From Candidatus Levyibacteriota bacterium (GTDB lineage Bacteria > Patescibacteriota > Microgenomatia > Levybacterales > UBA12049), in the NCBI GenBank assembly GCA_043823085.1, contig JBDRBE010000003.1, positions 19,822 through 83,821 on the forward strand: 64,000 bases of DNA, in the 5' to 3' direction. The position numbers were made by a program, and so were the translations under genes. The notes beneath the pieces are model-generated. The model was not told the DNA's origin. It made no database searches and worked only from the letters and a program-made list of their open reading frames with translations. Below are positions 14,549-64,000 of this stretch, piece by piece (position 1 is the first letter of the stretch; the number at the start of each line of letters is the position of its first letter).

Positions 14549-14599
14549 AGCGTATAGCGTATAGCGTATAGCGTATAGCGTATAGCGTATAGCGTATAG
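14549..14599. repeat. tandem heptamer (GCGTATA)x7 immediately after the nrdJ stop
   Basis: Seen directly: tagcgtatagcgtatagcgtatagcgtatagcgtatagcgtatag. This unit is the reverse complement of the CTATACGC family found elsewhere in the window. Confidence 0.9.
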
Positions 14600-14644: not shown

Positions 14645-14803
14645 GTAATCACCGTGACCTGCTTTTGCTGAAAGCTTCAGCAAGGCAAGAAATCGGTGGC
14701 AGTGCCGCTACTGTATAGCCAGAAAACCACGCAAAATAACCCCCGTGGGGGTTCCCGAGCAGGAGTTATTATATCCTTCTTGGGAACAAGAGGGATTTTT
14801 TTT
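14645..14803 (+). promoter_or_regulatory. cobalamin (AdoCbl) riboswitch upstream of the PduO-type adenosyltransferase
   Basis: GGTGGCAGTGCCGCTACTGTATAGCCAGAAAACCAC matches the conserved CCGCcACTGTaa core and B12 box AGCCAGgAaACC. A hairpin plus T-run (gggaac...gggattttttttATG) follows. Confidence 0.55.
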
Positions 14804-15370
14804 ATGGTTCGACAAGTTCACCACAAGGTGAAAATTTATACAAAGACCGGGGATAAAGGAAAAACTTCGCTTTTGGGCGGAAAGAGAGTGCCAAAAGATG
14901 ATTTAAGAATTGAAGTTATTGGAGAAATTGATGAACTGAATTCGGTGATTGGAATTGTGATAGCGCAAATCTCAAAGCGCAAATCTCAAAACCAAAACTT
15001 AAAGTTCAAAAATGAACTAATAAATATTCAAAAAGATCTTTTTGGAATTGGGTCATCATTGTCAGGTTTTTTAACTAAACGCTACGTGCTAGACGCTAGA
15101 CGCTTGGAAAAGATGATAGGCGAGTTATCGAAAGAGTTGCCCGTATTAAAGAGTTTTATTCTTCCCGGCGGGGGAGAAAGCGGTTCTTTTTTGCATTTGG
15201 CAAGAGCGGTTTGCCGAAGAGCGGAAAGAAGAACGGTTGGACTTTCTAAAAAAGAAATTGTCGATAAAAGTATCATTATGTATTTAAATCGTCTTTCGGA
15301 TTTATTATTTACAATGGCAAGATATATAAATTTTAAAGAAAATAAAAAAGAAATAATTTGGCCTTCCTAA
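14804..15370 (+). CDS. PduO-type ATP:cob(I)alamin adenosyltransferase
   Basis: MVRQVHHKVKIYTKTGDKGKTSLLGGKRVPKDDLRIEVIGEIDELNS matches the PduO N-terminal signature (KIYTKTGDKGxTSL...). The ATG at 14804 follows the riboswitch terminator; the ORF-track start at 14696 lies inside the riboswitch. Confidence 0.8.
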   Translation: MVRQVHHKVKIYTKTGDKGKTSLLGGKRVPKDDLRIEVIGEIDELNSVIGIVIAQISKRKSQNQNLKFKNELINIQKDLFGIGSSLSGFLTKRYVLDARRLEKMIGELSKELPVLKSFILPGGGESGSFLHLARAVCRRAERRTVGLSKKEIVDKSIIMYLNRLSDLLFTMARYINFKENKKEIIWPS

Positions 15371-15375
15371 GCTTA

Positions 15376-15594
15376 CCGTTCGCCTTTTCAATTCTATTCG
15401 AATACGGCTCACGGAGCGCTTTAAGGCGGGTAAGGTTAAAAAAATTTTATTGAAAGTAAAAATTGGGTGAAATCGGTGTGATTCCGATGCTGTGCCGCAA
15501 CTGTTAAAGCCAGATCCCCATTATCCCGCCAAACGGGATAGATAAGTCTTCCGAGTAGAAGCAATATTTCTCCTCGGAAACGAGGAGTTTTTTT
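15376..15594 (+). promoter_or_regulatory. second cobalamin riboswitch, upstream of an unknown 387-aa protein
   Basis: GGGTGAAATCGGTGTGATTCCGATGCTGTGCCGCAACTGTTAAAGCCAGATCCCC is a very good match to the B12 element core (GGTGAAAxCC...GCcGCAACTGTaa...AGCCAGGATaCC). The terminator hairpin ctcctcggaaacgaggagttttttt ends 2 nt before the ATG. Confidence 0.65.
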
Positions 15595-25399: not shown

Positions 25400-26752
25400 T
25401 TGATGAACAATCAATTCAAAAATAAAAAAATTGCCATTGTCGGGCTTGGAATAGAGGGTTTATCAAGCGCAAAGTTTTTTATTGAAAAGCGAGCAGAAGT
25501 TACAATTCTGGACAAAAAAGAAAAAACCGAATTAAACCTAGACACTCCGTTTGTTTTTGGTAAAAATTATCTGGATAATCTTGACTGTTTCGATGTCATT
25601 GTTAGAAGTCCGGGTGTTAAAGTTGATCTTCCAAATCTTCAAAAAGCAAAAGAAAAAGGAACGGTTATCACTTCTCAAATAAAACTTTTTTTTGATCTTT
25701 GTCCCTGCAAAATCATCGGCGTTACCGGAACAAAAGGAAAAGGAACGACCGCGTCGTTAATTTACGAAATGTTTAAAAAACAAACCAGAAATGCGTATTT
25801 GGGTGGTAATATAGGACTGCCTCCATTGGATTTTTTGGACAAATTAAATTCTCACTCAATTGTAGTTTTGGAACTCTCAAGTTTCCAACTCCAAGACCTT
25901 AAAAAGAGCCCTCATATTGCCGTAATTCTTATGACTTTAAGTGAACATCTTGATTATCATAAAGATGTTGAAGAATATGTCAGCGCAAAAAGAAATATTG
26001 TTAAATTTCAAAAGACTTCTGACTTTGCGATTTTAAATATTGATTATCCGGCAAGCCGCGAATCGGATATCCATACTCAGGGAAAAGTATTTTATATTAG
26101 TCGGGAAGGGGAGGTTGGTGAAGGATGTTTTGTGAAAAAAGGGGAAATAAAATTAAAAATTAAAAATGAGGAATTAAAAATTATTGATACTAAAGAAATT
26201 TTATTACCCGGGGAGCATAATTTTGAAAATGTTTGCGCGGCGGTTATGGCGGTTGCACTTTGTAATGTCTCGAAAGAGAATATCATTAAAGTCCTTAAAA
26301 CCTTTAAGGGCTTGGAGCATCGTTTGGAGCTTGTTGGAGAGGTTGGCGGCGTTAAATATTACGACGATTCGTTTTCGACCACTCCCGAAACTGCCATTGC
26401 CGCAATACTGGCTTTTAAAAATCCGGAGATTTTAATTTTGGGCGGGTCAAGTAAAAATTCAGATTTTAGCGAGTTAGGAAAAGTTATTAGTAATGCAAAA
26501 AATATCAAGGCGATTATTGGAATCGGTCTTGAATGGAAAAGAATTAAGTCAACTATACGCCATACGCTATACGCCATACGCTATATTGAAGGATTAAAGA
26601 ATATGCATTCAATTATTCAAAAAGCTTCAGAAATAGCGGAGGTGGGGGATATTGTTCTTCTGTCGCCGGCATGTGCCAGTTTTGATATGTTTAAGAACTA
26701 CAAGGACAGGGGAAGGCAGTTTAGAGAAGAAGTGGAGAACCTCAAGAAATAA
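25400..26752 (+). CDS. murD: UDP-N-acetylmuramoylalanine--D-glutamate ligase
   Basis: Rossmann N-terminus KIAIVGLGIEG and the Mur ligase P-loop IGVTGTKGKGTTASLIYEM. There is an in-frame CTATACGC-family repeat at 26548-26590. Confidence 0.9.
   Translation: MMNNQFKNKKIAIVGLGIEGLSSAKFFIEKRAEVTILDKKEKTELNLDTPFVFGKNYLDNLDCFDVIVRSPGVKVDLPNLQKAKEKGTVITSQIKLFFDLCPCKIIGVTGTKGKGTTASLIYEMFKKQTRNAYLGGNIGLPPLDFLDKLNSHSIVVLELSSFQLQDLKKSPHIAVILMTLSEHLDYHKDVEEYVSAKRNIVKFQKTSDFAILNIDYPASRESDIHTQGKVFYISREGEVGEGCFVKKGEIKLKIKNEELKIIDTKEILLPGEHNFENVCAAVMAVALCNVSKENIIKVLKTFKGLEHRLELVGEVGGVKYYDDSFSTTPETAIAAILAFKNPEILILGGSSKNSDFSELGKVISNAKNIKAIIGIGLEWKRIKSTIRHTLYAIRYIEGLKNMHSIIQKASEIAEVGDIVLLSPACASFDMFKNYKDRGRQFREEVENLKK
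26548..26590. repeat. CTATACGC/CCATACGC repeat inserted in-frame in murD
   Basis: aagtcaactatacgccatacgctatacgccatacgctatattg, encoding STIRHTLYAIRYI. Confidence 0.75.
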
Positions 26753-28231: not shown

Positions 28232-28350
28232 GCGCACATTAAGACATTTATTGATAGTGCACAATCCTCCATAAAACGCTCTTTGAGCCGCAGTTTGAAT
28301 AAACTAAGGCGAAAAGAAAGTTTAGGAGGATATGGATAAGGGAGAGAAAT

Positions 28351-46964: not shown

Positions 46965-48710
46965 ATGCTTTTTGCAGTACTCTCCAAATATTTTGAAAAA
47001 TTAGAATCTACTTCGTCGCGACTTGCTTTGATTGATATTCTCTCGGAGCTTTTTAAAGAATCAGAGAAAGACGAAATTGAAGAAATTGTTTATTTAACTC
47101 AAGGAAGGGTTGCTCCATTTTTTGAAGCGACGGAAATTGGCATGGCCGAAAAAACCGTTGCCGATTCAATTGCAAGAGCGTATGGATTATCGAAAGCAGA
47201 GGTTTTAAAGTCGTATCAAAAATTAGGAGATATGGGGAGCGTCGCTACGATCTTAAGTTCAAAAATCACCCGTTCGGCAAGCTCAGTGCAAAAATCAAAA
47301 ATATCTGTTTCCCAAGTTTTTGATGTTTTGACGCAAATTGCCAAGACCTCGGGAGAGGGAACGGTAGAAAAGAGACTTGTTCTTTTATCAGAGCTTCTTA
47401 AAAAACTTGATCCTGTTTCGGTTAAACATTTAGCGCGTATTCCTTTGGGAAATATGCGGCTTGGGATTGGTGACCCGACGATTTTGGACGCGCTTGCCAA
47501 AGCAAAGCTTGGCGATAAAAGCAAAAGAAAACTTTTAGAAGGGGCTTACAACAGAACTTCGGATCTTGGATTAATTGCCAAAACTCTTTGGAGCGACGGG
47601 CTTTCAAGCGTTGAAAAACTAAAAGTTGCGGTTGGAAAACCAATTCGGGCCGAGCTTGCCGAAAGATTGCCAAGTCCCGAAAAAGTAATTGAGAAAATGA
47701 AAACAGTCGACGTACAGTATAAATACGATGGTTTTCGCGTTCAAATTCACAAAAATAAAAACGAGGTTTCGATGTATTCAAGAAATCTTGAGAATATGAC
47801 TCATATGTTTCCCGAACTTATAAAAGGAGCGAAAGAACAGGTTAAACCCCAAACAGTTATTTTGGATTGCGAGGCGCTGGCTTACAATCCCCTTTCGGAA
47901 GAATTTTTGCCGTTTCAGGAAACAACCAAACGAAGAAGAAAACACGGTATTGAGGAGATGGCAAAAAAACTGCCTCTTAAAGCTTTTGTTTTTGACATCC
48001 TTTATAAGGATGGAAAGTCCTTGATTGACGAGCCGTTGACTAGTCGACTGAAAATTCTCAAAGAGACTATCAGGGATAATGGGGTTTTAATTGTCACCAA
48101 AAATCAAACTGTCTCCGATGCAAAAACTTTAACTTTACTTTTGGAAGACGCAATTTCCAAAGGTCTGGAGGGAGTGGTTGTTAAAAGATTGGACAGTAAA
48201 TATGAGGCGGGGGCAAGAAATTTTAATTGGGTAAAACTCAAAAGAAATTCCTCCGGCGAACTTAACGACACAATTGATTGTGTGATTTTGGGTTACATCA
48301 GCGGAAAAGGTAAAAGAACCGCTTTTGGAGCAGGGGCTTTGCTTGTTGGAATTTATGACGACAAAAAAGATGAGTTTGTAACTGTTTCCAAAATCGGAAC
48401 AGGACTTACAGATGAAGAATGGAAAGAAATAAAAATTCAAGGTGCAAAATTCAAAGTGCAAGATAAACCGCCGAGAGTAAATTCATTAATAACACCAAGT
48501 GTTTGGGTAGCGCCAAAAATTGTCATTGAAGTTTTGGCAGATGAAATAACTCGTAGTCCTGTTCATACCGCAGGGAAAAGCGCTGATGAACCCGGTTACG
48601 CTCTTCGATTTCCCCGTCTTGTTTCATTTCGAGGAAAAGATAAGCGGGCAGAAGACGCCACGACGGTTAAAGAATTAATTCAGATGTACAAACAACAAGG
48701 GAAAAAATAA
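46965..48710 (+). CDS. ATP-dependent DNA ligase (archaeal/eukaryotic-type)
   Basis: Adenylation motif I KYDGFRVQIH, motifs III-V and the OB domain (EGVVVKRLDSKYEAG...). A family C repeat lies in-frame at 47258-47306. Confidence 0.85.
   Translation: MLFAVLSKYFEKLESTSSRLALIDILSELFKESEKDEIEEIVYLTQGRVAPFFEATEIGMAEKTVADSIARAYGLSKAEVLKSYQKLGDMGSVATILSSKITRSASSVQKSKISVSQVFDVLTQIAKTSGEGTVEKRLVLLSELLKKLDPVSVKHLARIPLGNMRLGIGDPTILDALAKAKLGDKSKRKLLEGAYNRTSDLGLIAKTLWSDGLSSVEKLKVAVGKPIRAELAERLPSPEKVIEKMKTVDVQYKYDGFRVQIHKNKNEVSMYSRNLENMTHMFPELIKGAKEQVKPQTVILDCEALAYNPLSEEFLPFQETTKRRRKHGIEEMAKKLPLKAFVFDILYKDGKSLIDEPLTSRLKILKETIRDNGVLIVTKNQTVSDAKTLTLLLEDAISKGLEGVVVKRLDSKYEAGARNFNWVKLKRNSSGELNDTIDCVILGYISGKGKRTAFGAGALLVGIYDDKKDEFVTVSKIGTGLTDEEWKEIKIQGAKFKVQDKPPRVNSLITPSVWVAPKIVIEVLADEITRSPVHTAGKSADEPGYALRFPRLVSFRGKDKRAEDATTVKELIQMYKQQGKK
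47258..47306. repeat. family C copy 3 (ttcaaaaatcacccgttcggcaagctcagtgcaaaaatcaaaaatatc), in-frame in the ligase gene
   Basis: The same core as the pgk copies but read in a third frame (TRSASSVQKS). Confidence 0.7.
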
Positions 48711-48729
48711 TATAAAAATTATAACGTTT

Positions 48730-48777
48730 ATGCAGTTTGTTGCAGATCTTCACGTTCACTCTAAATATTCCCGCGCC
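48730..48777 (+). other. synonymously recoded duplicate of codons 1-16 of the downstream EndoQ-like gene
   Basis: atgcagtttgttgcagatcttcacgttcactctaaatattcccgcgcc gives MQFVADLHVHSKYSRA, versus the gene start MQLVADLHVHSKYSRA at 48876. There are 15 nucleotide differences, 14 of them synonymous, including TCT versus AGT for Ser. Confidence 0.6.
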
Positions 48778-48875
48778 CCAGATAACCTTAGCATGCGCCT
48801 TTTCAATACTATATCGTATACGGCTTATGCTGCGGTTTTAACGGGGCAGCTTTTTAATAGTGCTAAAATAGTCAT

Positions 48876-50267
48876 ATGCAACTAGTGGCAGATTTACATG
48901 TACATAGTAAATACTCACGCGCGGTATCACCGGACATGGTTTTGCCAATCATGGCAAAATGGGCAGTTAAAAAAGGAATTGATATTTTGGCAACTGCCGA
49001 CTGGACACATCCTCTTTGGTTTAGGGAAATAAAAGCTAACCTAGAAGAATCCAGTATTGGACTCTTCAAGCTCAAATCTTCCTCCTACTCTAAAGCTTCG
49101 GAGGACAAGCAAAACAAAACTCATTTTATTCTCTCCACTGAAATTTCGAGCATTTACTCGCAGGGTGGGCAAGTGCGGAGAGTTCATAATTTAATTTTAT
49201 CGCCGGGCTTTGAAACTTGCGAAAAAATCAATCAGGAATTGGTTAAACGCGGGTGTAATCTTTCCTCCGACGGACGGCCGATTGTTGGAATTTCTTCAAA
49301 AAATCTTTTGGAAATGGTTTTATCAATTGACAAAAACGCCTTATTTATTCCTTGCCATGTTTGGACGCCGTGGTTTTCTTTGTATGGTTCAAAATCAGGC
49401 TTTGATTCTATAGAAGAATGTTTTGGTGAGTATGTAAATAAAATTTATGCCGTTGAGACAGGACTTTCAAGCGACCCCCAAATGAACTGGCGGATAAAAG
49501 AATTGGAAAACCGTTCAATTGTTTCCTCGTCTGATTCCCATTCGCCGGCAAAGATGGGGAGGGAAGCGACCATATTCACAGTTCAAAATTCAAAATTCAA
49601 AAATCAAAATGACAGTTCAAAATTCAAAATTACATATGATGATTTAGTAGCTGCTATAAAAAGAGATCCCGAAGGTAATTTAAAGATTGGTTATACTATT
49701 GAGTTCTATCCGGAGGAGGGGAAATACCATTATACGGGGCATAGAAATTGTAAAGTTGTACAGAGTCCGGAGGAAACAAATAAGAATGGAGAGATTTGTC
49801 CGGTTTGCAAAAAACCCCTGACAGTGGGAGTGATGCACCGTGTTGAACAACTTGCTCAACAACAATCAATAAACAACTATCGACAATCAACAGATAAATT
49901 TGGAGTTACTTGGGTTGAAGATTCCAGAGGTATTCATCCGCCGTTTGTAAAATTGGTGCCTTTAAATGAAATAATTGCCGAGAGTTTAGCATCGACCGTG
50001 TCTAGCGTCAAAGTAAAAAGCGTTTTTGATCAAATGTGTGGTGAATTCGGTTCGGAAATAAAAATTCTTTTGACAACTCCAATTCAAGATTTGGAAAAAG
50101 CCCAAGGGCCAAAAATTGCCGAGGGAGTTGCCAAAGTCAGGAAGAGTGATATTGTGATTGAACCCGGATTTGATGGAGAATATGGGAAGGTAAAGATATG
50201 GGGAGAAAAAAAGTCAGCAGAGAATAGAAATGGGGAGAAAGAAGAGGCGCAGTTGGGATTATTTTAA
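48876..50267 (+). CDS. PHP-domain nuclease, endonuclease Q-like (TIGR00375 family)
   Basis: N-terminal DLHVHSKYSRAVS PHP motif, further His/Asp metal ligands (PCHVWTPWFS, SSDSHSP), an internal CxxC zinc finger (ICPVCKKPLTVGVMHRVEQLA) and C-terminal PGFDGEYGKVKI. The architecture matches archaeal EndoQ. An in-frame AT-rich tandem repeat lies at 49580-49632. Confidence 0.55.
   Translation: MQLVADLHVHSKYSRAVSPDMVLPIMAKWAVKKGIDILATADWTHPLWFREIKANLEESSIGLFKLKSSSYSKASEDKQNKTHFILSTEISSIYSQGGQVRRVHNLILSPGFETCEKINQELVKRGCNLSSDGRPIVGISSKNLLEMVLSIDKNALFIPCHVWTPWFSLYGSKSGFDSIEECFGEYVNKIYAVETGLSSDPQMNWRIKELENRSIVSSSDSHSPAKMGREATIFTVQNSKFKNQNDSSKFKITYDDLVAAIKRDPEGNLKIGYTIEFYPEEGKYHYTGHRNCKVVQSPEETNKNGEICPVCKKPLTVGVMHRVEQLAQQQSINNYRQSTDKFGVTWVEDSRGIHPPFVKLVPLNEIIAESLASTVSSVKVKSVFDQMCGEFGSEIKILLTTPIQDLEKAQGPKIAEGVAKVRKSDIVIEPGFDGEYGKVKIWGEKKSAENRNGEKEEAQLGLF
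49580..49632. repeat. AT-rich tandem repeat (TTCAAAA) in-frame in the EndoQ-like gene
   Basis: cagttcaaaattcaaaattcaaaaatcaaaatgacagttcaaaattcaaaatt. Confidence 0.85.
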
Positions 50268-59226: not shown

Positions 59227-59553
59227 ATGGCAGAAGTAATTATTACCGATCAAAATTTCGAATCAGAAGTTATTAAATCTGACATGCCGGTTCTTGTGGA
59301 TTTTTGGGCGCCGTGGTGCGGGCCATGCCGGATTGTCGGTCCGATTATCGAAGAATTGGCAAAAGAATATGAGGGAAAAGTTAAAATCGGAAAATTAAAT
59401 GTTGACGAAAATTCCGATACTGCGACAAAATATGCGGTGATGAGTATTCCGACTCTTCTTATCTTCAAAAAAGGAAGTCCTTTTAAAACCATGGTCGGCG
59501 CTCTGGCAAAAGAAAATATTAAAAAGGAAATCGATTCAGTAATTAGCGTATAG
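59227..59553 (+). CDS. trxA: thioredoxin
   Basis: Active site WAPWCGPCR. Confidence 0.92.
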
Positions 59554-59620
59554 GGTATAGGGGATAGCGTATAGTTTCCGTTTTAACTATATGCTATACG
59601 CCATTTGCTATACGCTGTTT
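59551..59620. repeat. long hairpin built from GCGTATAG/CTATACGC units between trxA and trxB
   Basis: gcgtatagggtataggggatagcgtatag...ctatatgctatacgccatttgctatacgc. The arms are reverse complements. It may act as a terminator or attenuator. Confidence 0.65.
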
Positions 59621-61411: not shown

Positions 61412-61485
61412 GGGCTCGTAGTTCAGCAGGCTAGAACACTTCATTTGCAATGAAGAGGTAGGCGGTTCGAGTCCGCCCGAGTCCA
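61412..61485 (+). tRNA. tRNA-Cys, anticodon GCA
   Basis: Acceptor GGGCTCG/CGAGTCC, D-arm, anticodon stem CTTCA/TGAAG with loop TTTGCAA, and T-arm GGCGG-TTCGAGT-CCGCC. Confidence 0.8.
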
Positions 61486-61598: not shown

Positions 61599-62014
61599 CC
61601 ATTCGACTCTCCGCCAGTTGGCGGATCGCTCAGGGCAAGCAGGATTTTCGTTGATTAGTGCCTAGCGCTGTCTCAATGACGAGACCGCTAGACACTAGTC
61701 AATTAAGACTAGATGGGATTCCGCCTAGCGGCGGAATCTTTGACCCCGCTAGAAACTTACTTGCTCGCAAGGTTTACATCCTTGCCTCGCAAGAGCGTTT
61801 CTATAAGGGTCTGCGTCGCCCGCCACAAATTTGGGTGGGTGTTAAAAATGTACGTCTGAATTAAAACAGAAGTTTTAAATTTATTGAAACTTTTCTGTAA
61901 AGAAATTTGGGCGGGCTCCTTGAAAAGTGAAGAGAAACAAGCCCCATAGAATCTTTCTTCTCGACACGTCAAACGTGCCTCGAAGAGCGATTTGACGGGG
62001 CAAGCGTCTTTAAG

Positions 62015-64000
<1,986 letters not shown>

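Follow-up and report, generated by a model that had tools for sequence, protein, structure and literature searches.

Why does a bacterial gene for an Endonuclease Q (EndoQ)-like protein carry its first 16 codons twice, in two spellings, 146 nt apart and in different frames? We analyzed this locus in a 64,000-nt stretch of a contig from a Candidatus Levyibacteriota bacterium, which we refer to as the window and whose first nucleotide is position 1; loci used for comparison are designated by L and a number, and the related ones among them assign the organism to Candidatus Levybacteria. The locus contains the following features.

46965..48710, + strand: ATP-dependent DNA ligase gene (Pfam DNA_ligase_A_N/M/C)
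48730..48777, + strand: upstream copy, codons 1-16; DNA ATGCAGTTTGTTGCAGATCTTCACGTTCACTCTAAATATTCCCGCGCC, peptide MQFVADLHVHSKYSRA
48730..48885, + strand: 51-codon upstream ORF, consisting of the 16-codon copy and a read through the hairpin; predicted peptide MQFVADLHVHSKYSRAPDNLSMR...
48775..48847, + strand: hairpin A, spacer copy (match to covariance model R1 spanning 48769-48854, 80.2 bits, E 6e-21)
48851..48855, + strand: T-run, 3 nt past the hairpin (GGGGC-AGC-TTTTT)
48861..48869, + strand: extended -10 box TGCTAAAAT, 6 nt ahead of the real ATG, without a Shine-Dalgarno sequence
48876..48923, + strand: downstream copy, codons 1-16 of the intact EndoQ-like gene; DNA ATGCAACTAGTGGCAGATTTACATGTACATAGTAAATACTCACGCGCG, peptide MQLVADLHVHSKYSRA
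48876..50267, + strand: intact EndoQ-like gene, 463 aa
48883-48885, + strand: TAG of the upstream ORF, overlapping codons 3-4 of the real gene in the other frame

The first-pass annotation of this DNA had reported two stretches encoding near-identical peptides, and we located both: MQFVADLHVHSKYSRA is encoded at 48730-48777 and MQLVADLHVHSKYSRA at 48876-48923, and the two peptides of 16 residues each are identical apart from F/L (TTT/CTA), the sole amino acid change between the copies. The offset of 146 nt and the different frame were likewise borne out. On recount, the copies differ at 14 of 48 bases and not at 15, with the serine codons TCT/AGT differing at two positions; 12 of the 14 differences are plainly synonymous. 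Among third positions, 10 of 15 differ. For 14 random changes in the gene copy, 8.6 amino acid changes are expected, and one change or fewer was obtained in 0 of 20,000 trials. Chance recurrence of a generic PHP-motif peptide, which the annotation itself had put forward as the refutation of its claim, is ruled out, since in a six-frame translation of the window the 16-residue peptide was found nowhere else and the runner-up matched at 7/16. A second EndoQ paralogue was not found within the window and is not needed either.

The downstream copy belongs to a gene whose product is similar to Pyrococcus furiosus EndoQ (5zb8) over its full length, the N-terminal D-x-H-x-H metal motif included (E 2.3e-44; query residues 4-444 versus chain residues 4-385). 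Pfam MJ0043_C is on record for this gene and the sources call it 'endonuclease Q family protein', while its score against NCBIfam TIGR00375 is 170.8 bits, under the curated cut-off of 326.6. Judged by these similarities, it is a putative divergent bacterial branch of Endonuclease Q. The extended -10 box in front of it recurs, identical and with identical spacing, in hairpin-free relatives (L165, L166, L164, L010, L013, L020, L041, and others). EndoQ genes without the hairpin generally have a TGnTAnAAT box 6-8 nt before the ATG/GTG and no Shine-Dalgarno sequence, and otherwise start at the ligase stop; in L003, L008, L032, L036, and L040, the ligase and EndoQ-like genes are adjacent and the latter starts directly at the ligase stop. 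A leaderless-type promoter of this kind is typical for the family. A scan of 48500-49000 for consensus promoters and terminators called nothing; the tool presupposes a -35 box, which the extended -10 promoter lacks, and a 3-8 nt loop, which the long hairpin lacks. The T-run at 48851..48855, which is conserved in L012, L015, and L176, is possibly the tail of a terminator.

The upstream copy starts 19 nt after the ligase stop. It runs into an ORF that does have 51 codons, as first described; the TAG of this ORF lies 7 nt inside the gene. Equivalent upstream ORFs have 44 codons in L012 and 45 codons in L015 (both EndoQ) and 35 codons in L004, where the gene is pth. When predicted proteins were searched by profile for other upstream ORFs, the L015 ORF itself was the sole hit; ORFs this short are rarely called.

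What, then, separates the two starts? The 98-nt spacer is filled by a hairpin and the promoter. The annotation had placed a CTATACGC-family motif here; we found the hairpin, which we call hairpin A, and rejected the motif as part of the feature because CTATACGC belongs to a separate tandem heptamer repeat, CTATACG(C), located elsewhere (14550-14599, - strand; 26553-26574, + strand; 59546-59615, both strands). This repeat, with 14 exact 8-mers versus 0.46 expected, is unrelated to hairpin A; gene 14696-15370 has a seven-unit array just upstream of it.

Hairpin A is an imperfect hairpin of ~75 nt (about 75-80 nt), with at least four copies in the 64-kb window. At 48775..48847, its basal stem is GCCCC/GGGGC, there are three inner stems, and both the internal loops (CTTAC / GAGCG type) and the terminal loop are conserved; the upstream copy ends in GCC, and this GCC and the following CC are the 5' strand of the basal stem. 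Searching with a profile of the spacer brought up additional copies, both in the window and at other loci. Ten copies, in which compensatory changes are plain, were aligned to build the covariance model R1. A strict pattern of the conserved core matched >120 metagenome stretches among the matches listed, and the covariance model confirmed 76, and then 34, metagenome copies. Across the family, the structure is a rod of three to four stems with variable outer stems, a 5' part with the consensus CCCGCC..CTTACC, and a conserved inner sequence, CTTACCGTTCGCC...CTATTCG...GGCTCACGGAGCG. In 73 distinct sequences, 95.9% of cells are standard pairs versus 76.9% in shuffles, 255 cells are changed on both sides versus 67 in shuffles, G-U pairs are very rare, and sliding the register drops pairing to 28-48%. 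The hairpin is also present in the minimum-free-energy fold of the window locus, and the thermodynamic fold alone is unremarkable (z = -1.41); the case for the structure is based on covariation. The L012 spacer is ~80% identical to that of the window and the EndoQ proteins only 58%, so the spacer is more conserved than the gene. A search of Rfam with 48600-49000 and E up to 10 gave only chance-level matches (mir-4524 at E 1.4, and others) and no intron or ribozyme family, the searchable literature gave nothing relevant, either by topic or for the exact strings, and viral contigs contained just 5 matches to the pattern.

Outside the spacer, the window contains three further copies and a weaker relative.

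15354..15438, + strand: second copy, 92.1 bits; overlaps the stop of gene 14696-15370
28257..28338, - strand: third copy, 55.2 bits; intergenic, antisense to a + strand gene start just downstream
61935..62009, + strand: fourth copy, 34.5 bits; abuts the 5' end of the 23S rRNA
61736-61817, + strand: weaker relative, 16 bits

Of 116 distinct copies, 51 come after the end of a same-strand ORF and sometimes overlap its stop codon (in the window, at 15370), 34 stand ahead of a same-strand start, 34 are situated upstream of a divergent gene, and 19 face the end of a convergent gene. TTGACA occurs within 70 nt downstream of 15 of 107 copies versus 4 upstream, with ~1.7 expected by chance. Copies directly adjoin 23S rRNA and 16S rRNA at their 5' ends, and also a tmRNA gene, tRNA genes, and a cobalamin riboswitch. 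Hairpin A is an intergenic 'punctuation' repeat between transcription units that is usable in either orientation.

Several of these settings have further structure. The copy at 15354..15438 lies 14 nt before an AdoCbl-II riboswitch (15452-15525, + strand, 37 bits); the C-terminal codons and the stop of gene 14696-15370, which encodes a putative ATP:cob(I)alamin adenosyltransferase, are inside the hairpin, and L158 has the same layout of gene end, hairpin, and riboswitch as window positions 14696-15525. At 61736-62020 (+ strand), two hairpin A-type structures are located between a tRNA (61412-61485) and the 23S rRNA; the LSU rRNA starts at 62020, and the second hairpin ends ~10 nt earlier. Elsewhere, hairpin A precedes 16S rRNA (L151) and boxA-like leaders (L056, L101). 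In 12 loci, including L053 (4277-4330), L103, L119, L156, and L164 (4021-4075), a second stem-loop, also conserved (..AAGAAAC..TAA....TTA..GTTTCTAA), comes after it and precedes GGAGG; the two may form a larger composite 5' structure.

Is the arrangement of a start copy, the hairpin, and a start peculiar to this locus? We found it at the EndoQ-like genes of at least seven Levybacteria, at pth, the peptidyl-tRNA hydrolase gene (three loci), and at trxB, the thioredoxin reductase gene.

EndoQ, window: upstream copy of 16 codons, intact
EndoQ, L012: upstream copy of 16 codons, intact (MEVVADLHLHSKYSRA)
EndoQ, L015: 16-codon copy with an in-frame deletion of two codons and three codons substituted
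EndoQ, L127: 9 codons; start codon lost (ATA)
EndoQ, L009: 5 codons (GTG GAA TTT GTT GCC)
EndoQ, L006: 4 codons
EndoQ, L028: 4 codons; frameshifted trace, no start
pth, L011, L012, and L004: 8 codons, 'MKLIVGLG / hairpin / MKLIVGLGNPG...'
trxB, L087: 12 codons with start, 11 aligned, 'M-YDVIILGSGPA / hairpin / MEKLYDVIILGSGPAGL...'

All upstream copies end in GCC/CC, GGC/CC, or GTC/C, which is the 5' strand of the basal stem. The least diverged pair found is that at the L087 trxB, in which 6 of 33 bases differ, all synonymously. Pooling the independent cases, 74 base differences give 12 amino acid differences versus 45.8 expected, a count biased by the use of peptide similarity to find them. 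Among ~100 hairpins of the unbiased metagenome set, 2-3 have a start copy (~2-3%). The genes with a start copy (EndoQ, pth, and trxB) have no Shine-Dalgarno sequence, except that one is noted for the real pth of L004, while hairpins that precede an ORF without a start copy have a clear one between the hairpin and the ATG (GGGGGTGA, AAGGAG, AGAGGTGA; L046, L064, L066, L080, L089, L132, and L158). A candidate fourth gene family (Lon, L051, 'xERV') was too weak to count. After the ligase stop of L164 and L166, the closest relatives, we did not find remnants of an upstream copy.

Three side observations concern these genes. In L004 (2026-2827), three tandem, mutually recoded pth starts are linked by two ATGA stop-start overlaps, in the order MLLIVGLG and the hairpin; MKLIIGLGNP and SFGKLRIKEKI, then a stop; and the real pth with its Shine-Dalgarno sequence. 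The second insert there is a short CTTCGGCAAGCTCAGGAT-type sequence that is also found in L068 and L117. In L025 (6281-6378), a weak match to the hairpin model (E 0.013) lies inside trxB, over GSGPAGLTAG (GGTCCTGCTGGGCTTACTGCT), at the place of the L087 hairpin junction; here, the native coding sequence resembles the 5' part of the hairpin. Finally, the EndoQ frames in the L036, L031, and L033 genome bins are short (55, 282, and 295 codons) and may be pseudogenes or sequencing errors.

Strain-level variation can yield joins in metagenome assemblies, and two strain variants of the gene start could have been chained in tandem by the assembler. However, an independent single-run assembly (Logan, L001) is identical to the window over 6,273 nt, the L012-type arrangement of another species is invariant across 9 contigs from different samples, projects, and assemblers, the 98-nt spacer is a conserved element and not a join, and the layout recurs in other genes. 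We consider an artefact of this type extremely improbable. Alternatively, splicing or ribosome skipping could join upstream codon 16 to codon 17 of the gene, so that both copies act as the N-terminus of the same protein. This would explain why both peptides are conserved and why the two copies in one genome have lineage residues in common (Q2 and V9 in the window; E2 and L9 in L012). Nevertheless, it is very improbable: no intron or ribozyme family was matched at E up to 10, the take-off GCC is not the landing GCG, the take-off codon is succeeded by CCA rather than by a stop, the 146-nt gap includes a complete start, and several species have a decayed or truncated upstream copy together with an intact gene.

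How did two recoded starts come to lie in tandem? The recurrent layout most likely marks old rearrangements at gene starts. For the window, the reading that we prefer, and to which we give about even chances, is that the upstream 48 nt come from an EndoQ allele, former or foreign, whose orphaned 5' end recombination left behind as a rearrangement scar at the gene start. One EndoQ allele would have begun directly after the ligase gene and, after codon 16, would have been joined to a unit in which the repeated hairpin and the extended -10 promoter precede a full EndoQ gene; the joint would lie within a short GC-rich match (GCC/CC) at the foot of the hairpin. To account for the near-exclusively synonymous differences, we propose that each copy evolved as a working gene start in a separate lineage before the two were brought together, such that no decay since the joining needs to be invoked. 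The real gene would now be read from its own leaderless promoter (48861-48869), and the scar would last as the 51-codon ORF through the hairpin, stopping 7 nt inside the real gene; this ORF may still hand ribosomes from the ligase message to the EndoQ start. The anatomy of the locus, the structure and family of the hairpin, the recurrence in three gene families, the range of decay, and the recombination breakpoint at a 5' end described below are observed; how and in which direction the parts were joined, and what the upstream ORF may do, we infer. The first-pass annotation had likewise suggested the 5' remnant of a divergent allele acquired by recombination, and this is still the best explanation, although it missed the hairpin in the spacer and the recurrence in other species and genes.

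Six lines of evidence argue for a scar. First, synonymous saturation with a kept peptide is as in two functional alleles from different lineages: the window copies are identical at 34 of 48 bases, the median for N-termini of orthologues from different species (34-35/48), and any two N-termini share 34-41 of 48. Second, the context of each copy is seen separately in relatives, as a start at the ligase stop and as a TGnTAnAAT start. Third, the same architecture occurs with differing junctions (16, 9, 5, and 4 codons in EndoQ, 8 in pth, and 12 in trxB). Fourth, upstream copies are found in every state of decay, from intact (window, L012) to decayed (L015, L127, L028). Fifth, recombination is directly visible in the one close pair available, L009, which has the hairpin, and L002, which does not. 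Their proteins are 86% identical, while nucleotide identity is 67% in the first 30 nt of the gene and ~93% thereafter, which places a recombination breakpoint at codon 9/10; the upstream copy of L009 matches the true start of L002 at 13/15 and that of L013 at 14/15, which shows it to be a former true start with its own leaderless promoter. Sixth, the distribution is patchy. The module is present in L012 and L176 and absent from the close relatives L011, L177, and L178 (80-82%), while the distant window and L015 have the junction and the promoter tail CAGCTTTT..TGnTAAAATAG in common; the upstream copy in the window carries the rare residue V9 (HVH), which is typical of the clade to which the window belongs, and not the HLH of the other modules with junction 16, and thus was not simply inherited with the module. 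L178 has a BrnT/BrnA toxin-antitoxin module between ligase and EndoQ, and a second, diverged copy of the ligase C-terminus flanks this module, which shows that insertions leaving recoded gene-end scars occur here without any hairpin. In that locus (1100-1200, 420-542), the last ~20 ligase codons are duplicated (..KDPKITTTVKELIKAYGLQNKK and a stop) 3 nt before the EndoQ start, and the real ligase end is 650 nt upstream of the duplicate, with the BrnT/BrnA pair in between.

Other observations do not fit as well with a scar. Within the EndoQ-like gene of the window itself, no breakpoint is visible. Along the whole length, the gene body has L003, L032, and four hairpin-free relatives as its closest matches (66-69% identity), and a sliding-window search for breakpoints gave no signal, the first 60 residues being unable to discriminate; this is explained by nearest relatives that are 67-69% identical at most and by saturated synonymous sites. 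Trees of the 48-nt copies were likewise saturated and without signal. In L012, neither copy is closer to L011 (82% identity), whose EndoQ gene lacks the hairpin (38 and 40 of 48). All 7 of 7 hairpin-bearing EndoQ loci keep at least a remnant of the gene start before the hairpin, which suggests that the duplication is tied to the arrival of the hairpin. Moreover, orthologous upstream copies change mostly synonymously. This holds for the pth copies of L011, L012, and L004, for the QFVSDLHL copies of L015 and L127 (five synonymous codon differences, including AGC/TCG for serine), and for L012 versus L011; polarised by L011, the upstream copy in L012 has 5 synonymous changes and 1 non-synonymous change, and the gene has 3 and 1. 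This pattern looks like purifying selection on the peptide or, alternatively, the independent origin or overwriting of each copy.

If the peptide is under selection, the upstream copy could be kept as a leaderless 'starter' ORF: ribosomes would load at the 5'-terminal AUG, melt the hairpin by translating through it, stop at or near the real AUG, and reinitiate. The ORF would thereby supply translation to a main ORF without a Shine-Dalgarno sequence and, where a T-run follows the hairpin, oppose termination; the peptide would be conserved because a proven N-terminal sequence aids efficient early elongation. A leader peptide was the alternative named in the first-pass annotation, and given the mostly synonymous changes in orthologous upstream copies, we keep it as a rival, albeit an unlikely one. 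The distribution of Shine-Dalgarno sequences described above fits with it, as do the pooled excess of synonymous differences (12 amino acid differences instead of 45.8 for 74 base differences), upstream ORFs that mostly end no more than 10 nt from the main ATG, the ATGA overlaps with the main start in pth (L011, L012, and L004), L127, and L006, and the three recoded starts in L004, which would constitute a two-step relay. Between L011 and L012, the promoter before the upstream copy and the start of this copy are conserved, and the copy changed at 4 of 24 nt where we would expect ~9 at the rate of synonymous sites. However, a relay requires an open frame and not 16 identical amino acids, and no known mechanism demands identity with the regulated protein. 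Further, the frame through the hairpin varies by locus, so the tail peptide is not conserved; the start codon or the frame is lost in several lineages (L127, L028); the upstream ORF ends inside the hairpin in L009 and L087; and the window gene has its own promoter after the hairpin, which makes a relay unneeded.

The presence of a start copy at 7 of 7 hairpin-bearing EndoQ loci can also be read as coupling between insertion and duplication. Here, a mobile palindromic hairpin would land in the first transcribed bases of a leaderless gene, and everything between the transcription start and the insertion point would be doubled, like a long target-site duplication of variable length; the copies, initially identical, would be recoded by selection on both or by repeated recombination with functional alleles from related strains. 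In line with this, the duplication starts at the start codon (the transcript start in these leaderless genes) or no more than ~5 nt away from it, and ends at a variable codon (4, 5, 9, or 16; 8; 12); at least three hairpin sub-types occur at the EndoQ start, each with its own junction, pointing to repeated independent events; and a multi-copy, intergenic repeat in either orientation with very few G-U pairs fits a DNA-level element. Yet hairpin A has no known transposase or target-site rule, identical or near-identical copies were not found (6 of 33 differences at least, in L087), and only ~2-3% of the hairpins in the unbiased set have a start copy. The outer stems vary by compensatory changes, as in long-resident elements rather than recent arrivals, and the saturated synonymous divergence demands a second process. 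We regard insertion-coupled duplication by itself as distinctly unlikely. In a combination of the last two explanations, the hairpin would enter the first transcribed bases of leaderless genes and duplicate their 5' end, and the copy would then be selected as a starter ORF that carries ribosomes over the hairpin to the main start without a Shine-Dalgarno sequence; this would be a previously undescribed way to build a 5' leader, and we consider it improbable, but with some weight.

If the copies are scars, as we prefer, they would directly document, at gene starts, recombination events between diverged lineages in bacteria of the Candidate Phyla Radiation and would mark the hairpin repeat as a preferred joint, which bears on exchange and promoter rewiring in small genomes. 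If, on the other hand, the upstream copies are selected, they would represent a novel type of leader, a copy of the N-terminus of the very protein that follows, with a function in translating leaderless-type genes. Either way, hairpin A is an undescribed, strongly covarying, multi-copy element next to rRNA, tmRNA, riboswitches, and promoters, and the existence of tandem starts calls for caution in gene calling.

How does this locus compare with known systems? None of the nearest ones combines a hairpin with recoded first codons of leaderless genes in several families. With REP/BIME, ERIC, Correia, and Rickettsia palindromic elements, hairpin A shares that it is a multi-copy (at least four in 64 kb), intergenic, imperfect palindrome found at gene 3' ends, before promoters, and in rRNA leaders in either orientation. 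It differs in being longer (~75-80 nt), in its three to four stems with conserved asymmetric internal loops, in its conserved inner sequence with covarying outer stems, and in being absent from Rfam. REP/BIME in particular, a palindrome of 20-40 nt with a conserved 5' GTAG, was rejected because hairpin A is ~75-80 nt and has no GTAG. A MITE has terminal inverted repeats between short target-site duplications of fixed length; here, the basal stem could act as inverted repeats, and the sole flanking direct repeats seen are the gene-start copies of 12-48 nt, which are diverged and variable in length; we know of no transposase associated with hairpin A.

With control by leader peptides or upstream ORFs, the locus shares a short ORF that runs through a strong hairpin (in the window, with a T-run) and stops near the main start. 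Here, however, the leader copies the N-terminus of the following protein (EndoQ, Pth, or TrxB), and no regulatory codon runs are evident in the 51 codons. In an attenuator, an upstream ORF overlaps a terminator hairpin with a U-run behind it; here, an ORF and a hairpin are present, the T-run starts 3 nt past the stem, the consensus scan called no terminator, and the pth and trxB copies have no T-run. In translational bypassing (phage T4 gene 60 and the mobile bypass elements of yeast mitochondria), as here, a hairpin starts right at the end of the first coding stretch, and coding picks up again further downstream; bypass of the gene 60 type was rejected on account of the unmatched GCC and GCG, the lack of a stop after the take-off, and a 146-nt gap with a full second start. 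A diversity-generating retroelement pair was rejected as well, since the 14 differences span all four bases without an adenine bias; the neighbouring genes in the window include no reverse transcriptase.

A parallel to the scar reading is the gene-end remnant left by illegitimate or site-specific insertion. Homology-facilitated illegitimate recombination produces duplications, and such remnants share with our locus a duplicated gene end that has diverged but still encodes the peptide, located next to inserted DNA, the retention of the intact gene, and one joint at a short GC-rich match; the ligase 3' end in L178 is a plain case. An integrative element that brings a replacement gene end was rejected because there is no kilobase-sized integrase element but only ~98 nt between the copies, with hairpin and promoter and no integrase or cargo. 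What sets the present loci apart is that the joint is found repeatedly at the foot of one conserved hairpin, at the 5' ends of leaderless genes, and in three gene families.
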